IMG/VR virus record: IMGVR_UViG_3300042914_002678
DNA length: 64,000 nt
Strand: one strand, 5' to 3'
DNA from: a virus
Lineage: Duplodnaviria > Caudoviricetes
The position numbers and the translations under genes are program-made. This document shows, in pieces, positions 2,438 to 32,224 of the stretch. The notes under the pieces were generated by a model. The model was not told where the DNA came from and made no database searches. It was given only the letters and a program-made list of their open reading frames with translations. Each line of letters opens with the position of its first letter. The first letter of the stretch is position 1.

Positions 2438-2548
2438 CGGGTTGGGTTTAATACCCTATAATACTCTCATGGGCAGGCGAGGTTCCAACCCTCCTTTAAG
2501 ACCCGCCCCTTCCATGCCTATCATAGAAGCACAAACAGGAAGGGTTAT

Positions 2549-2620
2549 GGGACTGTCGCCTATTGGTTAAGGCCCACTGCTTATAACGGTGTGAACGGAG
2601 TTCAATTCTCCGCAGTCCTA
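2549..2620 (+). tRNA. tRNA-Ile(TAT)
   Basis: Acceptor GGGACTG/CAGTCCT, anticodon arm CACTG-cTTATAa-CGGTG, T loop GTTCAATT. Confidence 0.9.
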
Positions 2621-2728
2621 TTGACAATCTAAGTTAAATACTTTATGATTGTCTCGTGAGTAACAGAGGGTCTAAACCTTGTGTAATCCTCACACACCTC
2701 CTCTAAGAGAACTTATAGGAGGTCTTAT

Positions 2729-2803
2729 GGGCACGTAACTCAGCCTGGACAGAGTATCCGACTTCTAATCGGTTAGCCGTAGGTTCAAATCCTACCGTGC
2801 CTG
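2729..2803 (+). tRNA. tRNA-Arg(TCT)
   Basis: Acceptor GGGCACG/CGTGCCT, anticodon loop cTTCTAa, T loop GTTCAAAT. Confidence 0.93.
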
Positions 2804-2857
2804 TTTTGAATAAAACAACTTAAAAACATAAATAATAATGTAATATCCATTAATAAT

Positions 2858-3316
2858 ATGGAATGTGTAACCTGCGGAAAACAACATAATAATCCAAAAT
2901 TTTGTAGTAGAAGTTGTGCCGCTAAATGGACTAATGTTCAACACCCTAAAAGGAAAAAAATTAATTTTCCAAATAAATGCGAAATGTGTGGTGTAGAAAT
3001 TGATTATAGAAGTAAAAGATGTATAAAATGTTGTGGTTCTTTGGGTGATATGACATTAAAAGAAGCAATTTATGAAAAACATCACAAGTCTTCTGCTTTT
3101 GCTTTAATTAGGACAAGAGCAAGAGCAGAAGGAAAAAAACTTGGATTTACCAAATGTTGCAAATGTGGGTATGATAAACATATAGAAGTTGCCCACATTA
3201 AACCAATTTCTTCTTTTAGTGAAGAGGTTATGATAAGTATTATTAATTCCAAAGAAAACATAATGCCTTTGTGCCCAAATTGCCACTGGGAATACGACCA
3301 TAACCTTTGGACTTGA
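2858..3316 (+). CDS. Free-standing HNH homing endonuclease within tRNA cluster
   Basis: Several CxxC Zn motifs plus EVAHIKPIS...NIMPLCPNCHWEYD HNH core; CATAAATA late-promoter-like motif at 2827. Confidence 0.85.
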   Translation: MECVTCGKQHNNPKFCSRSCAAKWTNVQHPKRKKINFPNKCEMCGVEIDYRSKRCIKCCGSLGDMTLKEAIYEKHHKSSAFALIRTRARAEGKKLGFTKCCKCGYDKHIEVAHIKPISSFSEEVMISIINSKENIMPLCPNCHWEYDHNLWT

Positions 3317-3347
3317 CATAATCTCAGAACTAGTGTAATATATAAAC

Positions 3348-3490
3348 TGATAGAGGGTAAGTCACTGTTATATCCTTATGAGGTATATCACACTTACTCC
3401 ATCAAATGTAGGAAGTGCAACACCTCTCGCTGGTTTAGACTGGATGATGTGAAAGGTGATTCTGTCCGCACATAGAAATCCCTCCTACCA
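3348..3490 (+). ncRNA. Structured RNA, candidate manA RNA motif
   Basis: Follows promoter TTGACA(3313)-17-TAATAT(3336); stems GGTAAGT/ACTTACT, TATATC/GGTATA, GTAGGA/TCCTAC; directly precedes a tRNA as described for cyanophage manA RNAs; family assignment from memory only. Confidence 0.5.
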
Positions 3491-3494
3491 TTAT

Positions 3495-3567
3495 TCCCTT
3501 ATAGCTCAATTGGCAGAGCACGGAGCTGTTAACTCTGGGGTTCCTGGTTCGAGTCCAGGTGGGGGAG
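3495..3567 (+). tRNA. tRNA-Asn(GTT)
   Basis: Acceptor TCCCTTA/TGGGGGA, anticodon loop cTGTTAa, T loop GTTCGAGT. Confidence 0.92.
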
Positions 3568-3657
3568 TTGGAAGTGATCCTGCGATAACCTCAAGAGCAC
3601 TCCTTCCAACTAAAACCTAGAATATTTCTAGGTCAGGGGGATGGCCTCCCCTGTTTC

Positions 3658-3729
3658 GCCCTTGTAGCTCAGTGGTAGAGCAACGGTTTTGTAAACCGTT
3701 GGTCGCTGGTTCAAATCCAGTCGGGGGCT
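3658..3729 (+). tRNA. tRNA-Thr(TGT)
   Basis: Acceptor GCCCTTG/CGGGGGC, anticodon arm ACGGT-tTTGTAa-ACCGT. Confidence 0.93.
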
Positions 3730-3807
3730 TGACATAATACTCATTATGTCTTATACTTTTCCTATCCGTGTGAAGGAAATGTGCTGGGAGAGAAATCTCC
3801 CACTTTT

Positions 3808-3878
3808 GCGAATGTGGTGTAGCGGTAACATCCCATCCTTCCAAGTTGGTGTCACGGGTTCGATCCCCGTCATTCGCT
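3808..3878 (+). tRNA. tRNA-Gly(TCC)
   Basis: Acceptor GCGAATG/CATTCGC, anticodon loop cTTCCAa; promoter TTGACA(3729)-17-TATACT(3752). Confidence 0.93.
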
Positions 3879-4008
3879 TATAAACCGTAAAAACCGAAAA
3901 GGCTTGACTGATCCCAAAGGAACTGTTAAGATAAATACCGTGAAGTGATAGTGCCTCAACTACTCGCATAGTCACACATTATGTCCTATAGAACAAAAAC
4001 AAATTTTT

Positions 4009-5502
4009 ATGAAACTCAAACAACTGATGCTTGCACCTGTTGCTCTGGGAATGGTTGCTCCTGTTGCTGCGAATGCCGCAGACCTTAACATGGCAGCAGT
4101 CAACCAATACTCCACTGAGCAGGTTACAAGCGTTTCGCAACTTTCTGATGTGCAACCCACTGACTGGGCATATCAGGCACTCAGCAATCTTGTAGAGCGT
4201 TATGGTTGTGTTGCTGGTTATGCAAACGGCACCTTTGGTGGTGGTAAAGCAATGACCCGTTATGAAGCAGCAGCACTTCTGAATGCTTGCCTTGACCGTG
4301 TAACCGAAGTTACTGATGAACTCGGTCGTCTTGCAAATGAGTTCCGTGATGAACTGACTGTAATTCAAGGTAAAGTTGCAAGTCTGGAAACCAAAGTTGG
4401 TGCTCTGGAAGCAACTCAATTCTCTACCACAACTAAACTGAAAGGTGAAGCATCTTTCGTTCTTGGTGGTGTTGATAATGCTTGGGTTCCTGGTAAGGAT
4501 TCCAGTACCAATGTAGGCAATACTGCCTTCAACTACGATCTTCGTATCAATCTTGATACTTCTTTCACTGGAAAGGATCTTCTTCGTACTCGTCTTCGTT
4601 CTGGTAACTTCTCCAGTCAACCTTTTGGTTCCAGTTCTTCACTCTTTAAACTGGACAAAGCAGAAGGCACTTCTGATTCTGTAAAGATTGACCGTCTGTA
4701 CTACAGCTTCCCTGCTCTTGCTAAGGGTGTAACTCTGACTGCTGGTGCTCTGGTTCGTAATACTGAGATGACCTGGATTCCTTCTGCTTATAAGTCGGAT
4801 GTTCTGGACTTCTTCCAACTTGCTGGTGCTCCTGGTGTCTATAACAAGGCAACTGGTGCTGGTTTCGGTGCTCAGTGGTCACAAGGTAAGAAAGGTTTCG
4901 TTGCTGGTCTGAACTATGTTGCTCAGAGTGGTGCTGATTCTACCAAAGGTGAGTTTAATGAAAAGGGTGCTCTGAACACTCTTGCTCAGATTGGTTATCG
5001 TACTCCTCAGTGGGGTGCTGCTTTCGGTTATCGTTACGGTACTGAAGGCACCCGTGTTCGCACCTTTAATGGTGTTCTGGGTAGTTCTGGTGCTCTTGCT
5101 CCTGGACAAACCTCTAATGGTTATGCTCTGAGTGCTTACTGGCAACCTAAGAAGTCTGGTATTATTCCTTCTGTGAGTGGTGGATATGGTTGGAACACCG
5201 TAAGCTTGAATGCTGAAGGTGCAGCAACTCCTACTGGTGCTACCGATTCTCAAACTTGGTATGCTGGTCTTCAGTGGTCTGATGTATTCGCCAAGGGTAA
5301 TTCTGCTGGTTTCGCTATCGGTCAACCTGGAAATGCAGAAGGTCTTGAAAAGGATGCAACAATGTGGGAACTGTTCTATAAGTATCGTGTAAGCGATAAT
5401 ATTACTGTTACTCCTGCTGTGTTCTATGTGTCTAACAATCAAGCACTTGCAGATACTTCTTCCAACTATGGTGGTGTAATTCAGACGACTTTCCGTTTCT
5501 GA
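4009..5502 (+). CDS. Cyanobacterial outer-membrane porin (SLH domain + OprB-type barrel, Som family)
   Basis: Signal peptide, SLH motif SDVQPTDWAYQALSNLVERYGCVAGY...RYEAAALLNACL, coiled coil, TQFSTTTKLKGE, C-terminal TTFRF; promoter TTGACT(3904)-17-TAAGAT(3927). Confidence 0.93.
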   Translation: MKLKQLMLAPVALGMVAPVAANAADLNMAAVNQYSTEQVTSVSQLSDVQPTDWAYQALSNLVERYGCVAGYANGTFGGGKAMTRYEAAALLNACLDRVTEVTDELGRLANEFRDELTVIQGKVASLETKVGALEATQFSTTTKLKGEASFVLGGVDNAWVPGKDSSTNVGNTAFNYDLRINLDTSFTGKDLLRTRLRSGNFSSQPFGSSSSLFKLDKAEGTSDSVKIDRLYYSFPALAKGVTLTAGALVRNTEMTWIPSAYKSDVLDFFQLAGAPGVYNKATGAGFGAQWSQGKKGFVAGLNYVAQSGADSTKGEFNEKGALNTLAQIGYRTPQWGAAFGYRYGTEGTRVRTFNGVLGSSGALAPGQTSNGYALSAYWQPKKSGIIPSVSGGYGWNTVSLNAEGAATPTGATDSQTWYAGLQWSDVFAKGNSAGFAIGQPGNAEGLEKDATMWELFYKYRVSDNITVTPAVFYVSNNQALADTSSNYGGVIQTTFRF

Positions 5503-5523
5503 TAATAACTACATAGTGTAAAC

Positions 5524-5559
5524 TGGGGGGTTGACAAAACCCCCTTTTTAGTGTATTAT
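5524..5559 (+). terminator. Intrinsic terminator overlapped by sigma70 promoter
   Basis: GGGGG-TTGACAAAA-CCCCC + T run; TTGACA(5531)-17-TATTAT(5554). Confidence 0.7.
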
Positions 5560-5580
5560 AAGTAACAAGTTAAAAGTTTT

Positions 5581-5736
5581 ATGTCTCTTATTTCCCAACG
5601 CGATAGAGAAGTTGCTCTTGAAGCACTTGATTTTTATCTCTTCAATAAAAAATTTGATTTTACTGAAGAAAAAAGAATGGAACTAAATGCTTTGATTAAT
5701 TGGATCAAACTAGAATACACAAAGAATGAAAATTAA
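5581..5736 (+). CDS. Small hypothetical protein (51 aa)
   Basis: MSLISQRDREVALEALDFYLF...; follows promoter and overlaps next ORF; not in track. Confidence 0.6.
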   Translation: MSLISQRDREVALEALDFYLFNKKFDFTEEKRMELNALINWIKLEYTKNEN

Positions 5737-5890
5737 TCTATGGTTTTGTAAGGATATGAATCAGTGGCGTTGGACTTTGACTGATGATCACCGTCCAATC
5801 ATTAAACAAGAATCAGGTCAAAGAGAAAATCTACGTGATGCTATGAATGATGTAGCAAATACTGTAGAATATATGATGAGTCAATATTGA
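5726..5890 (+). CDS. Small hypothetical protein (54 aa)
   Basis: MKINLWFCKDMNQWRWTLTDDH...; fills the gap before tRNA-Val; not in track. Confidence 0.65.
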   Translation: MKINLWFCKDMNQWRWTLTDDHRPIIKQESGQRENLRDAMNDVANTVEYMMSQY

Positions 5891-5897
5891 CTTTATT

Positions 5898-5970
5898 GGG
5901 CGATTAACTCAGCGGTTAGAGTGTCTGCTTTACACGCAGAAAGTCCGCAGTTCGAATCTGCGATTGCCCA
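5898..5970 (+). tRNA. tRNA-Val(TAC)
   Basis: Acceptor GGGCGAT/ATTGCCC, anticodon arm TCTGC-tTTACAc-GCAGA. Confidence 0.93.
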
Positions 5971-6016
5971 TTATAAATATTCAAAAAAGATTGAAGAAGT
6001 ATAACTGATTATAACA

Positions 6017-6274
6017 ATGGAAAATTTAAGAATCAGATGTCGATCCTGTGGTAAGGAGTTAGAGGGACATTCTACGAAAACTATAACTTGTGGTTGTCCA
6101 AATATGGCAACAATTCGTGGAGGAGTTATTTCAGCTGTTGACTTATCCTCTGTTGTTATGCTAAACTTTGTAAATAATAAATCAAAGTCTGGTGTTCTCA
6201 CTAACGAAGACCTTGCCTTTCAAGAGGCAAGAAGACAACGTAAGGTAAGACGTTTAGATTTTGAAGTCCGCTGA
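6017..6274 (+). CDS. Zn-ribbon hypothetical protein
   Basis: CRSCG...CGCPN motif; TATAAATA at 5972. Confidence 0.7.
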   Translation: MENLRIRCRSCGKELEGHSTKTITCGCPNMATIRGGVISAVDLSSVVMLNFVNNKSKSGVLTNEDLAFQEARRQRKVRRLDFEVR

Positions 6275-6285
6275 GGACTTATTTT

Positions 6286-6372
6286 GGAAGCGTGGCAGAG
6301 TCCGGTTTATTGCGCTTGTCTTGAAAACAAGTGAGGGTAACACCTCCGTTAGTTCAAATCTAACCGCTTCCG
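6286..6372 (+). tRNA. tRNA-Ser(TGA)
   Basis: Acceptor GGAAGCG/CGCTTCC, anticodon loop cTTGAAa, long variable arm GAGG-GTAACA-CCTC. Confidence 0.92.
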
Positions 6373-6485
6373 TTACAAATATTACAAAATTTTAGATTTT
6401 TTTAATCTATATTTTTGTATCAACACAAACTTGACAAAGTAGAATTACTGACTAATATAATTAGTAATATTCAACCTAAAACCTT

Positions 6486-6635
6486 ATGGATCAGCACACC
6501 TATCTTAATTGGGTGAAGATCAAAGAAACTTTTGAAACGTCTGGTAATACAGATAATATGTTTTATAAGAGAGCAGTTGAAATCGTAAAAACACGAAAAG
6601 ACCCTCTTGCAAAGTTTCTTGGAGATGAAAAGTGA
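6486..6635 (+). CDS. Small hypothetical protein (49 aa)
   Basis: MDQHTYLNWVKIKETFETSG...; downstream of TTGACA at 6431; stop overlaps next ATG. Confidence 0.6.
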   Translation: MDQHTYLNWVKIKETFETSGNTDNMFYKRAVEIVKTRKDPLAKFLGDEK

Positions 6636-6838
6636 TGGAACCTTTTGATGTTGATTATGTAACTCGTACAGAAGTACAGGAGATGATTGATGCCGCTATC
6701 CGAAGGCATAATCGTAATGCTTCCATTATTAGTATGTGTGTTGGTTGGGTGGTTCTTGCTTTATTTGCTGAGGGACTTTTAAGACTTGTAGGGGTAATTC
6801 CTCCACTACTTCCATGGCTCAAAATTACTCTCCAATAA
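6635..6838 (+). CDS. Small membrane protein
   Basis: Hydrophobic SIISMCVGWVVLALFAEGLLRLVGVIPP segment. Confidence 0.7.
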   Translation: MEPFDVDYVTRTEVQEMIDAAIRRHNRNASIISMCVGWVVLALFAEGLLRLVGVIPPLLPWLKITLQ

Positions 6839-7104
6839 TATTTTTAGTTCCTTGGTTTGTGCTTATGGGTATTGCAATTTCTATGATTGCACAAGGTTGG
6901 ATGATTATGAACGCTCACCATGGATACTCAAAAAGTCCAAAAGTGAAGCACCCAGAAATGAACGATGTTAAGGTAGGAGATCCGTTACTAGTGGTGAGAT
7001 TTACAGACGAAGATATTGAACAACTTCAAAGAAGAGTTTTACAACAAAAAATAGAAGAACTATTTGAAGAACCATCAACTTACGAGGACGAGGAAGATGA
7101 TTAA
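6814..7104 (+). CDS. DUF2973-like membrane protein
   Basis: N-terminal TM helix then KHPEMND..GDPLLVVRF motif. Confidence 0.6.
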   Translation: MAQNYSPIIFLVPWFVLMGIAISMIAQGWMIMNAHHGYSKSPKVKHPEMNDVKVGDPLLVVRFTDEDIEQLQRRVLQQKIEELFEEPSTYEDEEDD

Positions 7105-7192
7105 AGCAATAATATCAACAATTATTCTTTTTTCTTCTATTGGACTTTTTATACATTGGGGACTTACACACGCATATCCAGAGGTTTTATGA
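7097..7192 (+). CDS. NdhQ-like single-TM peptide (31 aa)
   Basis: MIKAIISTIILFSSIGLFIHWGLTHAYPEVL; TM helix ending IxWxLxxAY as in cyanobacterial NdhQ (recalled ...LIWWALHTAYA); stop overlaps gnd ATG. Confidence 0.5.
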   Translation: MIKAIISTIILFSSIGLFIHWGLTHAYPEVL

Positions 7193-8223
7193 AAGTAGGA
7201 TTGATTGGATTAGGTAGAATGGGCGAAGGTATGTCTCGCCGCATGATGAAGGCAGGAATAGAAGTCTGGGGTTATCGGAGGAATTATGAAAAAGCAAACG
7301 AAGCATACGAAAGTGGGTATGTTAACGGCGTTACAACTACTATTGAAAATCTTGTTAAAGTAGTTAAGCAAAATAAAAATGGAGGAACACAACCAGGAAT
7401 CTTTCAGATGGTTGTACCTGCCGAAACCGTAGAGGAGACGATCAATGAGTTACTACGATATTGTGGTGAAGGAGATATTATTATTGATCATGGCAATAGC
7501 AATTTTAAAGACAGTCGGAAGAGAGCAGAACGCCTGGCAAAGTTGGGTATCCAATATATTGATTGTGGCACTAGCGGTGGTGTTTATGGTTTGGATCGTG
7601 GATACTGTCTTATGGTTGGTGGTGGAAATACTGCAGTCGCCACTTGTTCGCGCATTTTTGATGCCCTCGCTCCAGGAATCAACGCTGCCCCCAGGACTCA
7701 ATTTAACTCGGACGTAACTTCTGCAGAGTTTGGTTGGTTACATTGTGGTGGACCTGGTGCCGGACACTTTGTAAAAATGGTTCATAATGGTATTGAATAC
7801 GGTATAATGCAAGCATATGCTGAAGGTTTCGATATTTTAAAGAACGCTAACGCAGGTTCTCAGTATGTTAAAGAAGGAGATGCTGAGGTTGCTCCAATGG
7901 CAGACCCAGAAAGTTATTGTTATGATATTGACGTTGCTGAGGTTGCTGAGTTATGGCGTCGTGGTAGTGTGGTTGGGTCTTGGTTACTCGATCTTACTGC
8001 TGATGTGCTACGCAGGGATGGTAGCCTTAAACAGTTCTCTGGAGGCGTATCCGACAGTGGTGAGGGTCGTTGGACTGTTTCTGCCGCTGTGGATCTGGGG
8101 GTTCCCGCTCCTGTTATTACTACTGCCTTATTTGAAAGATTTAACTCACGCAATCTCGGATCATTTGGAGCAAAGATCTTAAATGGTATGCGTTATATGT
8201 TTGGGGGACATCATGTTAGGTAA
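7189..8223 (+). CDS. gnd: 6-phosphogluconate dehydrogenase (decarboxylating, short type)
   Basis: MKVGLIGLGRMG Rossmann motif, IDHGNS, DCGTSGG, GHFVKMVHNGIEYG, SDSGEGRW, RYMFGGH; ATG 7189 preferred. Confidence 0.97.
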   Translation: MKVGLIGLGRMGEGMSRRMMKAGIEVWGYRRNYEKANEAYESGYVNGVTTTIENLVKVVKQNKNGGTQPGIFQMVVPAETVEETINELLRYCGEGDIIIDHGNSNFKDSRKRAERLAKLGIQYIDCGTSGGVYGLDRGYCLMVGGGNTAVATCSRIFDALAPGINAAPRTQFNSDVTSAEFGWLHCGGPGAGHFVKMVHNGIEYGIMQAYAEGFDILKNANAGSQYVKEGDAEVAPMADPESYCYDIDVAEVAELWRRGSVVGSWLLDLTADVLRRDGSLKQFSGGVSDSGEGRWTVSAAVDLGVPAPVITTALFERFNSRNLGSFGAKILNGMRYMFGGHHVR

Positions 8224-8332
8224 AGCACTTATTTTTATTTCTATTCCTTTTGTACTGACTACACTGTATTTTGGAACACGAGGAGGATACTATGACTCCA
8301 AAGACTATAAGGGAAATGGAACCGCACATTAA
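8213..8332 (+). CDS. ndhP: NDH-1L subunit NdhP (39 aa)
   Basis: MLGKALIFISIPFVLTTLYFGTRGGYYDSKDYKGNGTAH; one TM helix plus FGTRxGxYDxxxYxGNGxAH C-terminus matching cyanobacterial NdhP; not in track. Confidence 0.85.
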   Translation: MLGKALIFISIPFVLTTLYFGTRGGYYDSKDYKGNGTAH

Positions 8333-8519
8333 GCAAAGATATAATTTTGCAATGTCTGCATTTTCAAGAATGCTTGGGATAAGATCCGCTTCTAATGACA
8401 TGCATATTAAGCAGTTCTGTATTGAATGGTCATACTGGGATGTGAGTGCTCCTTTGTCAGGTCTTAATGAGGTTGATCAGTATTTTTATTATGAATATAA
8501 GAATTGGAGAGGAAGATGA
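8316..8519 (+). CDS. Hypothetical protein
   Basis: In frame with track ORF 8271..8519; ATG 8316 chosen because the upstream part overlaps ndhP. Confidence 0.6.
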   Translation: MEPHIKQRYNFAMSAFSRMLGIRSASNDMHIKQFCIEWSYWDVSAPLSGLNEVDQYFYYEYKNWRGR

Positions 8520-8635
8520 TTTTTCACGTAGTAGAAACACTTGCAAATAGTCCAATTTGGTTAGGACTTTGTGGATTTGGAATAGTTGTGGTTCCTATTA
8601 TGGGAATTGCTTTTATACATAATAACATAAAGTAA
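8516..8635 (+). CDS. Small membrane peptide (39 aa)
   Basis: MIFHVVETLANSPIWLGLCGFGIVVVPIMGIAFIHNNIK; ATGA overlap; not in track. Confidence 0.55.
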   Translation: MIFHVVETLANSPIWLGLCGFGIVVVPIMGIAFIHNNIK

Positions 8636-8644
8636 AGTAAAGAT

Positions 8645-9079
8645 ATGGCGACAATTACGTTAGCAGTTACAGCACCTTCTATTGGTAGTGAATGGACTGT
8701 TCAATTTACTGCGGACTCTTCAACAACAATTAAAACTATAACTGGGTTTTCAATTAGTGCCACAACTCCTAGTTTACCAAGTTTATTTTCAGTGTCTTCT
8801 GTAAATGGATATGACGGAAGTGGAGTTCAGTATGTAACTTGGAGATCTACAAGTCCAGCTGGTCAGCATCCAACTTCTGGATGGAGTATGGACATTTGGA
8901 ATCAAGCTTTTTATGAAGACATTATTACTTATAATGGTAATGTTGGTAAAGTATGGTCTGATGTGAATGGAGTAACTTATAGTTTAAATCCTAATAAGTG
9001 GAGTTTAATTTATAATTATGGTAGTTTATATGCTCCAGTATTTACGAAAGGTGGCACATTGACAGTAACAGTTACTTGA
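8645..9079 (+). CDS. Hypothetical Ser/Thr-rich protein
   Basis: 144-aa ORF with no recognised motif. Confidence 0.6.
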   Translation: MATITLAVTAPSIGSEWTVQFTADSSTTIKTITGFSISATTPSLPSLFSVSSVNGYDGSGVQYVTWRSTSPAGQHPTSGWSMDIWNQAFYEDIITYNGNVGKVWSDVNGVTYSLNPNKWSLIYNYGSLYAPVFTKGGTLTVTVT

Positions 9080-9115
9080 CAAAATTTATTACTTATGTTA
9101 CTATATTATAAATTA

Positions 9116-9189
9116 CGGAATGTAGCTCAGTTTGGTAGAGCACTCGCTTTGGGAGCGAGATGTCGCAGGTTCGAATCCTGTCATTCCGA
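9116..9189 (+). tRNA. tRNA-Pro(TGG)
   Basis: Acceptor CGGAATG/CATTCCG, anticodon arm CTCGC-tTTGGGa-GCGAG. Confidence 0.94.
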
Positions 9190-31927: not shown

Positions 31928-32224
31928 ATGACATTTAACATTACTTTTCATTGGCCTAGTGGATCTAAAATTAGTCCCACTATTGAATGCTCTCCAGACC
32001 AATACATTCTTGAAGCAGCAGAAGAAGCAGGACTAGATCTTCCTTTTTCTTGTAAAGCAGGTGCTTGTTCTGCTTGTGCTGGTAAATTAATTAGCGGCAC
32101 TGTGGATAATGAGGATCAATCATTTCTTGATGATGACCAAATCGCTAATGGTTTTATCCTAACTTGTGTAGCATATCCCACCAGCGACTGTGTAATTCTG
32201 ACTGAGCAGGAAGAAAACCTGTGA
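31928..32224 (+). CDS. petF: Plant-type [2Fe-2S] ferredoxin
   Basis: [32 protein letters not shown]. Confidence 0.96.

Follow-up and report, generated by a model that had tools for sequence, protein, structure and literature searches.

Does a phage gene for 6-phosphogluconate dehydrogenase (gnd) that is framed by two tiny open reading frames (ORFs) mark a site at which a cyanophage maintains an electron-transport complex of its host? The question is raised by a 64,000-nucleotide stretch of the IMG/VR virus record IMGVR_UViG_3300042914_002678 (the window, by which we mean this whole stretch), where one micro-gene overlaps the 5' end of gnd and another its 3' end. An initial annotation, made from the letters alone, had read the upstream ORF as NdhQ-like and the downstream ORF as NdhP, both small subunits of the NDH-1L complex, and its coordinates and reading frames for the two overlaps were correct. 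The ATP supply of cyanobacteria is topped up by cyclic and respiratory electron flow, which NDH-1L drives, and ferredoxin is the electron donor of this complex. Nowaczyk and colleagues are said to have reported NdhQ in 2011 as a small single-helix NDH-1L subunit, and it is chain Q in cryo-EM models of the Thermosynechococcus elongatus complex, for instance 6HUM and 6KHI. Here, we present evidence that the upstream ORF is very probably homologous to NdhQ and that the downstream ORF clearly resembles NdhP, and we weigh what such a pair might do in an infected cell. The three genes at the center of the argument are as follows.

7097..7192, + strand: ndhQ-like micro-gene, 31 aa, one transmembrane (TM) helix; MIKAIISTIILFSSIGLFIHWGLTHAYPEVL
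7189..8223, + strand: gnd, short-type 6-phosphogluconate dehydrogenase, 344 aa
8213..8332, + strand: ndhP micro-gene, 39 aa, one TM helix and the tail FGTRGGYYDS.DY.GNGTAH; MLGKALIFISIPFVLTTLYFGTRGGYYDSKDYKGNGTAH

Homology of the upstream micro-gene to NdhQ

Starting from sequences in the supplement of PMC12038448, we collected 65 relatives of canonical NdhQ and aligned 60 of them, with numbering taken from the T. elongatus-like first row. Invariant across these 60 sequences are R7, G8, I9, M10, K11, F12, A15 and D16 in an N-terminal arm and S24, L35, W38, A43 and Y44 in the helix. The hidden Markov model (HMM) of this alignment was run with filters off against the 1,753 six-frame, stop-to-stop ORFs of at least 20 aa in the window, and the ORF containing 7097..7189 ranked first with 21.5 bits (E 1.3e-5), the second reaching 6.8 bits. 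The match is ungapped over model positions 20-43 and sets S7, W21, A26 and Y27 of the phage peptide on canonical S24, W38, A43 and Y44, leaving L35 as the one helix invariant of five without an identical residue; the near-invariant canonical I32 and L40 are also present. In seven other phage loci the homologous micro-ORF was likewise the top match of the canonical HMM, at 12.9-25.3 bits.

Comparison between profiles gave the same picture. We aligned ten phage and metagenome copies of the ORF, among which F18, W21, G22, A26 and Y27 are invariant, and compared this alignment with the canonical one in hhalign, obtaining a probability of 95.6%, an E value of 1.1e-8 and a score of 36.1 over 25 columns, against a mean of 8.8 and a maximum of 22.7 for 300 column shuffles of the phage alignment and 13.3 for the reversed alignment. 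Reciprocally, the phage HMM recovered 42 of the 60 canonical NdhQ sequences at E<=0.01, with the best of 3,116 decoy ORFs at 8.8 bits. A single-sequence phmmer search of the PDB with the 31-aa ORF did not reach T. elongatus NdhQ at E<=10, and profiles are therefore needed; scans of Pfam, NCBIfam and PHROG with the same ORF returned chance-level matches only (e.g., a zinc-finger model, E 0.048). An exhaustive search of 1.84 billion representatives yielded two true short relatives and two repetitive false matches, a scarcity that we ascribe to micro-ORFs seldom being called. The NdhQ-like assignment of the initial annotation is thus backed by the canonical HMM, by hhalign and by the reciprocal HMM, and the NdhQ tail that it had given was exact, since T. 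vestitus NdhQ ends LIWWALHTAYA (PMC12038448, supplement).

A short NdhQ in picocyanobacterial hosts

A 2025 survey did not find NdhQ in Synechococcus WH8102, Synechococcus WH5701 or Prochlorococcus CCMP1375 (PMC12038448). In two Cyanobiaceae genomes the canonical profile nevertheless picked out a single ORF apiece, the match being limited to model positions 14/16-43; these ORFs read ...MDQGSPMLVLISGILLLGGIATFIGWGLTHAYPAA and MAGEPGNPNRGNTDSPMLVLISG...WGLTHAYPGS. The phage profile matched 133 of 151 Cyanobiaceae genomes, nearly always in single copy. All 32 host ORFs that we extracted scored 31-42 bits with the phage HMM and 19-43 bits with the canonical one, and they end in WGL[TAS][HN]AYP, the short NdhQ being 38-45 aa long; a 39-aa member from Prochlorococcus MIT 9303 carries the UniRef label 'NADH dehydrogenase subunit NdhQ'. 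Judged by these sequences, picocyanobacteria possess a shortened NdhQ that has lost the NRGIMKF segment and kept G-x-D-S-P and the helix, and the phage gene reads as a copy of the Synechococcus/Cyanobium-type short NdhQ that starts about 8 residues later. A tblastn search of isolate phages with Prochlorococcus-type NdhQ gave no match, and every phage copy found was of the Synechococcus/Cyanobium type.

The host form also changes how the missing N terminus of the phage protein is to be understood. The initial annotation had described an NdhQ without its N-terminal extension, and the arm is indeed absent; because the NdhQ of the host clade already lacks NRGIMKF, this absence is mostly a host-clade trait and mostly not a phage truncation. 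That NdhQ is listed as missing by PMC12038448 implies that the short host form is itself poorly recognized. In one host locus, the short NdhQ gene lies between ribF-like and thiE-like ORFs (assigned by reading translations only). Synteny as a proof of orthology was uninformative, as the ndhQ neighborhoods of Thermosynechococcus, Geminocystis and the picocyanobacteria all differ.

Spread and selection of the micro-gene

Taking its spread and substitution pattern together, we hold with good confidence that the ndhQ-like ORF is a real, translated gene. Of 593 pattern matches in IMG/VR, 440 encode a relative of it. Variants and synteny were counted in the best 80 IMG/VR loci, which are the closest relatives of the window, so that the frequencies given here and below are no census. 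These loci hold 36 distinct peptides of 28-31 aa, all beginning just before the helix. Across 39 distinct DNA versions the ratio of nonsynonymous to synonymous variation (pN/pS) was 0.31 (pS 0.53, pN 0.17), with 0.18 for the C-terminal half alone; stop codons in the other two frames left no scorable pair of sequences there. The ORF is under purifying selection. In a diverged strain from lake metagenomes, the replacements K>R, A>T, T>A and I>L are confined to the N-terminal half, and the C-terminal half shows synonymous changes only. Isolates carrying the gene are S-SRM01, S-CAM9, ACG-2014h, ACG-2014j, ACG-2014e, ACG-2014i, ACG-2014f, S-CAM4, S-RIM12, DSL-LC03 and S-SCSM2R; in public phage records the homologues are unannotated or hypothetical and never called NdhQ.

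The downstream micro-gene and NdhP

For ORF 8213..8332, similarity points clearly to NdhP. The peptide matches the NdhP chains of two PDB entries (6khi_P, E 4.5e-8; 6hum_P, E 4.2e-7), its residues 6-39 aligning to 6khi_P as far as the C terminus, and falls in phrog_2173 (1.1e-20). A single TM helix is followed by the host-type motif FGTR[NG]G[FY]YD..Y.GNG[ST]AH, and the tail LYFGTRGGYYDSKDYKGNGTAH equals that of host NdhP (host sequences from the supplement of PMC12038448). The PDB match, the PHROG family and the conserved tail all bear out the NdhP call of the initial annotation, whose comparison with the host protein was also correct, the T. elongatus chain being FGTRNGFYDTDQYHGNGSAH.

Cyanophage ndhP has been published before (PMC6596454, PMC10452541, PMC12801897), and PMC10452541 and PMC6596454 attribute it to Nowaczyk 2011 and Schwarz 2013. 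According to PMC12801897, the gene is rare, occurring in P-TIM68 and S-SCSM2R and known only from P-TIM68 before S-SCSM2R. Our tblastn search found ndhP in 382 phage records, mostly at the gnd/zwf junction and either unannotated or called hypothetical; it is therefore far commoner than that paper states. In the searchable literature we found no link between NdhQ and phages, although Nowaczyk 2011 or Schwarz 2013 may mention one. The expectation that phage ndhP was already on record and that the NdhQ partner was the new element agrees with this literature.

Genomic context of the gene chain

The source of the window is an uncultured freshwater T4-like cyanophage (a cyanomyovirus), and the stretch lies within its variable auxiliary-gene region. 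Lake-water metagenomes hold DNA near-identical to the window. No isolate phage matches the whole stretch, and the best DNA matches are to gnd of Kyanoviridae (T4-like Synechococcus phages) at 74-79% identity. The gnd gene itself is of the short (gnd_rel) type, with an NAD(P)-binding Rossmann domain and a 6PGD C-terminal domain, and scores above the curated cut-offs of NCBIfam NF007161 (376.5 bits; cut-off 271) and TIGR00872 (336 bits; cut-off 297). It also matches Pfam NAD_binding_2 (PF03446, 4.9e-34) and 6PGD (PF00393, 1.3e-22) and phrog_1319 (2e-179), and its DNA is about 79% identical to the gnd of S-RSM4 and S-H9-1.

From 6486 to 8635, eight co-oriented ORFs on the + strand form a chain in which the starts and stops of neighbors abut or overlap. 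The stop of orf96 overlaps the start of the ndhQ-like gene, which is immediately preceded by a GAGGA/AGGAAG Shine-Dalgarno sequence; its TGA stop (7190..7192) shares an ATGA overlap with the gnd ATG (7189), and the start of ndhP overlaps the end of gnd by 11 nt. Besides the three genes already listed, the chain and its candidate signals comprise the following.

6372..6413, + strand: NtcA-like site, GTT-N8-TAC, N22, TATATT; 6372..6386 reads GTTACAAATATTACA
6431..6458, + strand: sigma-70-like promoter, TTGACA-16-TAATAT; 10/12 matches in a consensus scan
6486..6635, + strand: orf49, opens the chain; taken from the ORF list, no match in Pfam, NCBIfam or PHROG
6635..6838, + strand: orf67, phage-specific TM protein; phrog_1096 at 4e-38
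6814..7104, + strand: orf96, TM protein with an acidic tail; phrog_275 at 1.2e-9
8292..8519, + strand: orf75, phrog_593 at 2.9e-19; overlaps ndhP by 41 nt
8516..8635, + strand: orf39, small TM protein; phrog_1184 at 1.1e-5; ends the coupled chain

The sigma-70-like sequence at 6431..6458 is a putative promoter and the likely start of the gene chain, and no convincing terminator was found between 6486 and 8635. The initial annotation had also pointed to a near-NtcA box upstream. Defining an NtcA-activated promoter as GTA-N8-TAC about 22 nt 5' of a TAN3T -10 box, we find the box present at 6372..6386, with GTT for GTA as the one mismatch and a TAN3T box 22 nt 3'. With 4 occurrences in the window, where 1.56 are expected, and with 7 of 100 shuffles having at least 4, the relaxed pattern is not significantly enriched; the site begins within the final 2 nt of the tRNA-Ser gene (6285..6373), its spacing is changed in the contig of a relative, and the sigma-70-like promoter is the stronger of the two. 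A function of the NtcA-like site is doubtful.

Three small TM ORFs, at 6635, 6814 and 8516, had been grouped with the NDH genes in the initial annotation, together with a petF elsewhere. The ORFs exist and belong to phage-only PHROG families, and for the first two, orf67 and orf96, no link to NDH was detected in family scans or in 41 host genomes. As host-derived subunits both are ruled out, each having a counterpart in 1 of the 41 genomes. A sub-threshold match of orf67 to the N-terminal domain of OpcA, the glucose-6-phosphate dehydrogenase assembly protein (E 0.056), is not significant, nor is that of orf96 to the cyanobacterial family DUF2973 (19.7 bits, under the cut-off of 22.2). The only match of orf39 is phrog_1184, a PHROG with no assigned function. 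The petF gene is present at 31928..32224 and encodes a plant-type ferredoxin (PF00111, E 9e-22).

Around the chain, 2548..9189 contains eight tRNA genes (Ile-tat, Arg-tct, Asn-gtt, Thr-tgt, Gly-tcc, Val-tac, Ser-tga and Pro-tgg), of which tRNA-Ser ends at 6373, just 5' of the chain, and tRNA-Pro is followed by a 2-oxoglutarate-Fe(II) oxygenase gene (PF13759, 9206..9754). A porin gene at 4009..5502 (+ strand) encodes a 497-aa cyanobacterial-type outer-membrane protein with SLH and OprB domains. Its closest relatives in genome collections (64-74% identity) sit on contigs of metagenome-assembled genomes labeled Microbacteriaceae and Gammaproteobacteria, and these contigs are probably mis-binned phage or cyanobacterial DNA.

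Recurrence of the ndhQ-like/ndhP pair

The order in the 80 loci is orf67, orf96, ndhQ-like gene, a cargo slot, ndhP, orf75 and orf39. Upstream of the ndhQ-like gene, most of the 80 loci carry orf67; downstream, orf75 is the fixed 3' neighbor of ndhP, and the synteny of orf39 is common to S-SRM01 and the IMG/VR loci. In the isolates, the ndhQ-like region lies between the structural genes g16 and g17. The flank 3' of the ndhQ-like gene holds the following.

34 loci: gnd, then ndhP
6 loci: gnd, ndhP not in the flank
9 loci: gnd and ptoX, then ndhP
5 loci: ptoX, then ndhP
1 locus: ptoX, ndhP not in the flank
1 locus: talC
9 loci: 185 or 403 nt with small ORFs of no identified family, then ndhP
15 loci: no gnd, ptoX, talC or ndhP in the flank

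ndhP thus lies 3' of the ndhQ-like gene in 57 of the 80 loci. Since the content of the slot varies from gnd, gnd with ptoX, ptoX or talC to small ORFs or nothing, gnd is no fixed partner. The isolates add further variants: S-SRM01 has the same cassette with gnd and ndhP both absent, the ndhQ-like gene of S-CAM9 lies about 460 nt 3' of gnd and ndhP, and that of S-SCSM2R abuts talC. The two micro-genes recur together without being obligate partners, gnd being one cargo among several; of the arrangement that the initial annotation had seen in one genome, the ndhQ-like/ndhP pairing recurs, and the presence of gnd is optional. In one contig from an RNA library, which represents a relative without gnd, positions 7105 and 8330 are bridged by 81 other letters. 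Several DNA contigs likewise join about 7100-7105 to 8261-8475 with other letters between, skipping gnd and ndhP. Relatives without gnd co-exist in nature.

Proposed role in infected cells

In solved NDH-1L, NdhP and NdhQ flank NdhD1 on opposite sides and touch NdhF1, lipids and two carotenoids (PMC6992706, PMC7021789). Deletion of ndhP or ndhQ converts about half of NDH-1L to NDH-1M, and the double deletion nearly all of it (PMC11794437). We co-folded the phage peptide with NdhD1 from a Cyanobiaceae genome (817 bits to 6HUM chain D). The predicted complex reached an interaction prediction score from aligned errors (ipSAE) of 0.63 in three runs, against 0.00 for the best of 3 controls, with a partner predicted local distance difference test (pLDDT) of at least 80 and contacts agreeing by at least 89% between runs; of 78 solved complexes, 51 attain the mark used in this complex test, as do 2 of 108 mismatched pairs. 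The predicted contacts lie at residues 277-290, 409-417 and 506 of NdhD1 and, on the peptide, at residues 15, 18-19, 22-23 and 25-28, which form its conserved face. That this face (I15, F18, G22, A26, Y27) would pack on host NdhD1 is supported purely in silico.

We consider it likely that the phage copies of NdhQ and NdhP around gnd keep NDH-1L assembled during infection, and we propose the following course of events. Upon infection, the phage NdhQ and NdhP would enter the thylakoid membrane beside NdhD1, on opposite sides, and together with lipids and carotenoids would hold the NdhD1/NdhF1 module on NDH-1M. By supplying these small and probably short-lived clamps, the phage would allow NDH-1L to stay assembled as host protein synthesis declines, so that proton pumping and ferredoxin-driven electron flow, both cyclic and respiratory, could go on making ATP, while phage gnd, or ptoX or talC in relatives, would meanwhile reshape the flow of carbon and reductant. 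The stabilizing role that we infer here for the two phage proteins is, taken by itself, an evenly balanced call. More tentative, and in our judgment somewhat short of probable, is the idea that the two genes form an NDH-1L 'clamp' whose members are the fixed ends of a slot in which reductant-handling genes (gnd, ptoX, talC) are swapped.

Several observations weigh against this proposal. The invariant N-terminal arm is missing, since the phage peptide starts only near canonical position 18, and every phage copy has F (F18 here) where canonical NdhQ has the invariant L35. It is by similarity that the short picocyanobacterial protein, its UniRef name included, is assigned to NDH-1. S-CAM9, ACG-2014h and S-SCSM2R possess both genes, but ACG-2014j and ACG-2014i (isolated from Synechococcus WH7803) and S-SRM01 and DSL-LC03 (from other Synechococcus hosts) carry the ndhQ-like gene without ndhP, and the numbers of phage records are uneven (382 with ndhP, roughly 90 with the ndhQ-like gene). 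Metatranscriptome contigs come from relatives only (90-97% similar), lie mostly over gnd and could be DNA, which makes them weak RNA evidence. As NDH-1L structures have already been solved, the pass in the complex test speaks to likeness, not binding, and may stem from the model's memory of those structures. Lastly, petF lies 24 kb from the chain, and zwf, ptoX, petE and talC are absent from the window.

Some of these features would suit other roles. The phage NdhQ might act as an antagonist or re-tuner that displaces the host subunit and weakens or alters the NdhD1/NdhF1 module, for example shifting NDH-1L to NDH-1M or changing its coupling, with electrons diverted toward PTOX or off the CO2-uptake forms. 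The 36 phage variants, which begin right at the helix where host copies retain M-x-x-G-x-S-D-S-P, the constant replacement of L35 by F and the frequent presence of ptoX in the slot between the ndhQ-like gene and ndhP would all fit such a role. We nevertheless think it unlikely, given that the residues predicted to contact NdhD1 are those conserved with the host, that the host had already shed most of the arm so that the further loss in phages is small, that phage NdhP retains its full conserved tail, and that the cyanophage photosynthesis genes known so far mostly take over or maintain functions of the host. It is also conceivable, if improbable, that the helix derives from NdhQ and no longer serves NDH-1, having been co-opted for another partner such as orf67, orf96 or PTOX. 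The run of orf67, orf96 and ndhQ-like gene is the most constant part of the locus, more so than the link to ndhP, which some carriers do without; yet the best-conserved residues (W21, G22, A26, Y27 and I15) are precisely those of the NdhQ signature that hosts also have, the NdhD1 complex model passes its controls, and neither orf67 nor orf96 has a host counterpart pointing to a known complex.

The most skeptical explanation, that a generic hydrophobic and perhaps untranslated micro-ORF resembles the NdhQ helix by chance, can draw on the peptide's hydrophobicity and its length of only 31 aa, on the silence of Pfam, NCBIfam and PHROG and on the failure of the single-sequence search to reach T. 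elongatus NdhQ at E<=10. It is contradicted by the HMM, shuffle, host-homologue and selection tests: the ORF is an outlier among 1,753, none of the 300 shuffles attains the profile-profile score and the reciprocal HMM is positive; a near-universal single-copy host homologue has the identical WGLTHAYP tail; and a pN/pS of 0.31, stops in the other two frames and 440 viral loci speak for a gene. We accordingly regard chance resemblance as extremely improbable.

Returning to the proposal that the phage proteins keep NDH-1L assembled, its consequences, if true, would reach beyond this locus. A second phage-encoded assembly subunit of NDH-1L, often found together with the first, would mean that phages target more than photosystems and also influence how stable this complex is. 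Were the two genes a clamp, the phage could hold or tune NDH-1L independently of the host, pentose-phosphate or PTOX electron flow would be tied to ATP for replication, and the short NdhQ of Prochlorococcus and Synechococcus would be an overlooked genuine NDH-1L subunit. The findings also touch a gap in the literature, where marine Synechococcus and Prochlorococcus are listed as having no NdhQ although most of the genomes that we searched in this family encode a short one, and a gap in annotation, as two widespread micro-genes (ndhP in 382 records, the ndhQ-like gene in at least 440 IMG/VR loci) lie below the usual ORF cut-offs and are mostly unannotated.

Comparison with known systems

The phage helix shares with canonical NdhQ the ungapped pattern I-S-x(4)-L-x(2)-I-x(2)-[LF]-[IV]-x-W-[AG]-L-x-x-A-Y. 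Canonical NdhQ has 45-47 aa and the arm N-R-G-I-M-K-F-x-G-A-D-x-P, whereas the phage copy is viral, armless and 31 aa long and has L35 changed to F. The short picocyanobacterial NdhQ stands closer, with about 54% helix identity to the phage protein (our own alignment), an identical FI.WGLTHAYP tail in the Synechococcus/Cyanobium type and the NRGIMKF segment likewise absent. It differs in about 8 extra N-terminal residues (M-E-x-G-G-S-D-S), which the phage copy does not have, and in being encoded by a solitary chromosomal gene, whereas the phage gene belongs to a translationally coupled chain. ORF 8213..8332 is like known cyanophage ndhP in length, C-terminal motif and position at the 3' end of gnd; unlike in the usual arrangement, no zwf lies 3' of it, and we see no essential difference.

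Genes for photosystems, ferredoxin, plastocyanin, PTOX and the pentose-phosphate pathway are known from phages of the main primary producers in oceans and lakes. Like the cyanophage electron-transport genes psbA, psbD, hli, petE, petF, ptoX, ndhI and ndhD, the ndhQ-like gene is host-derived, lies in a variable region and presumably helps to keep host energy conversion going in infected cells. Unlike them, it would encode neither a catalytic nor a cofactor-binding protein but a micro-protein acting as an assembly or stability factor, paired with a second factor of the same sub-complex.

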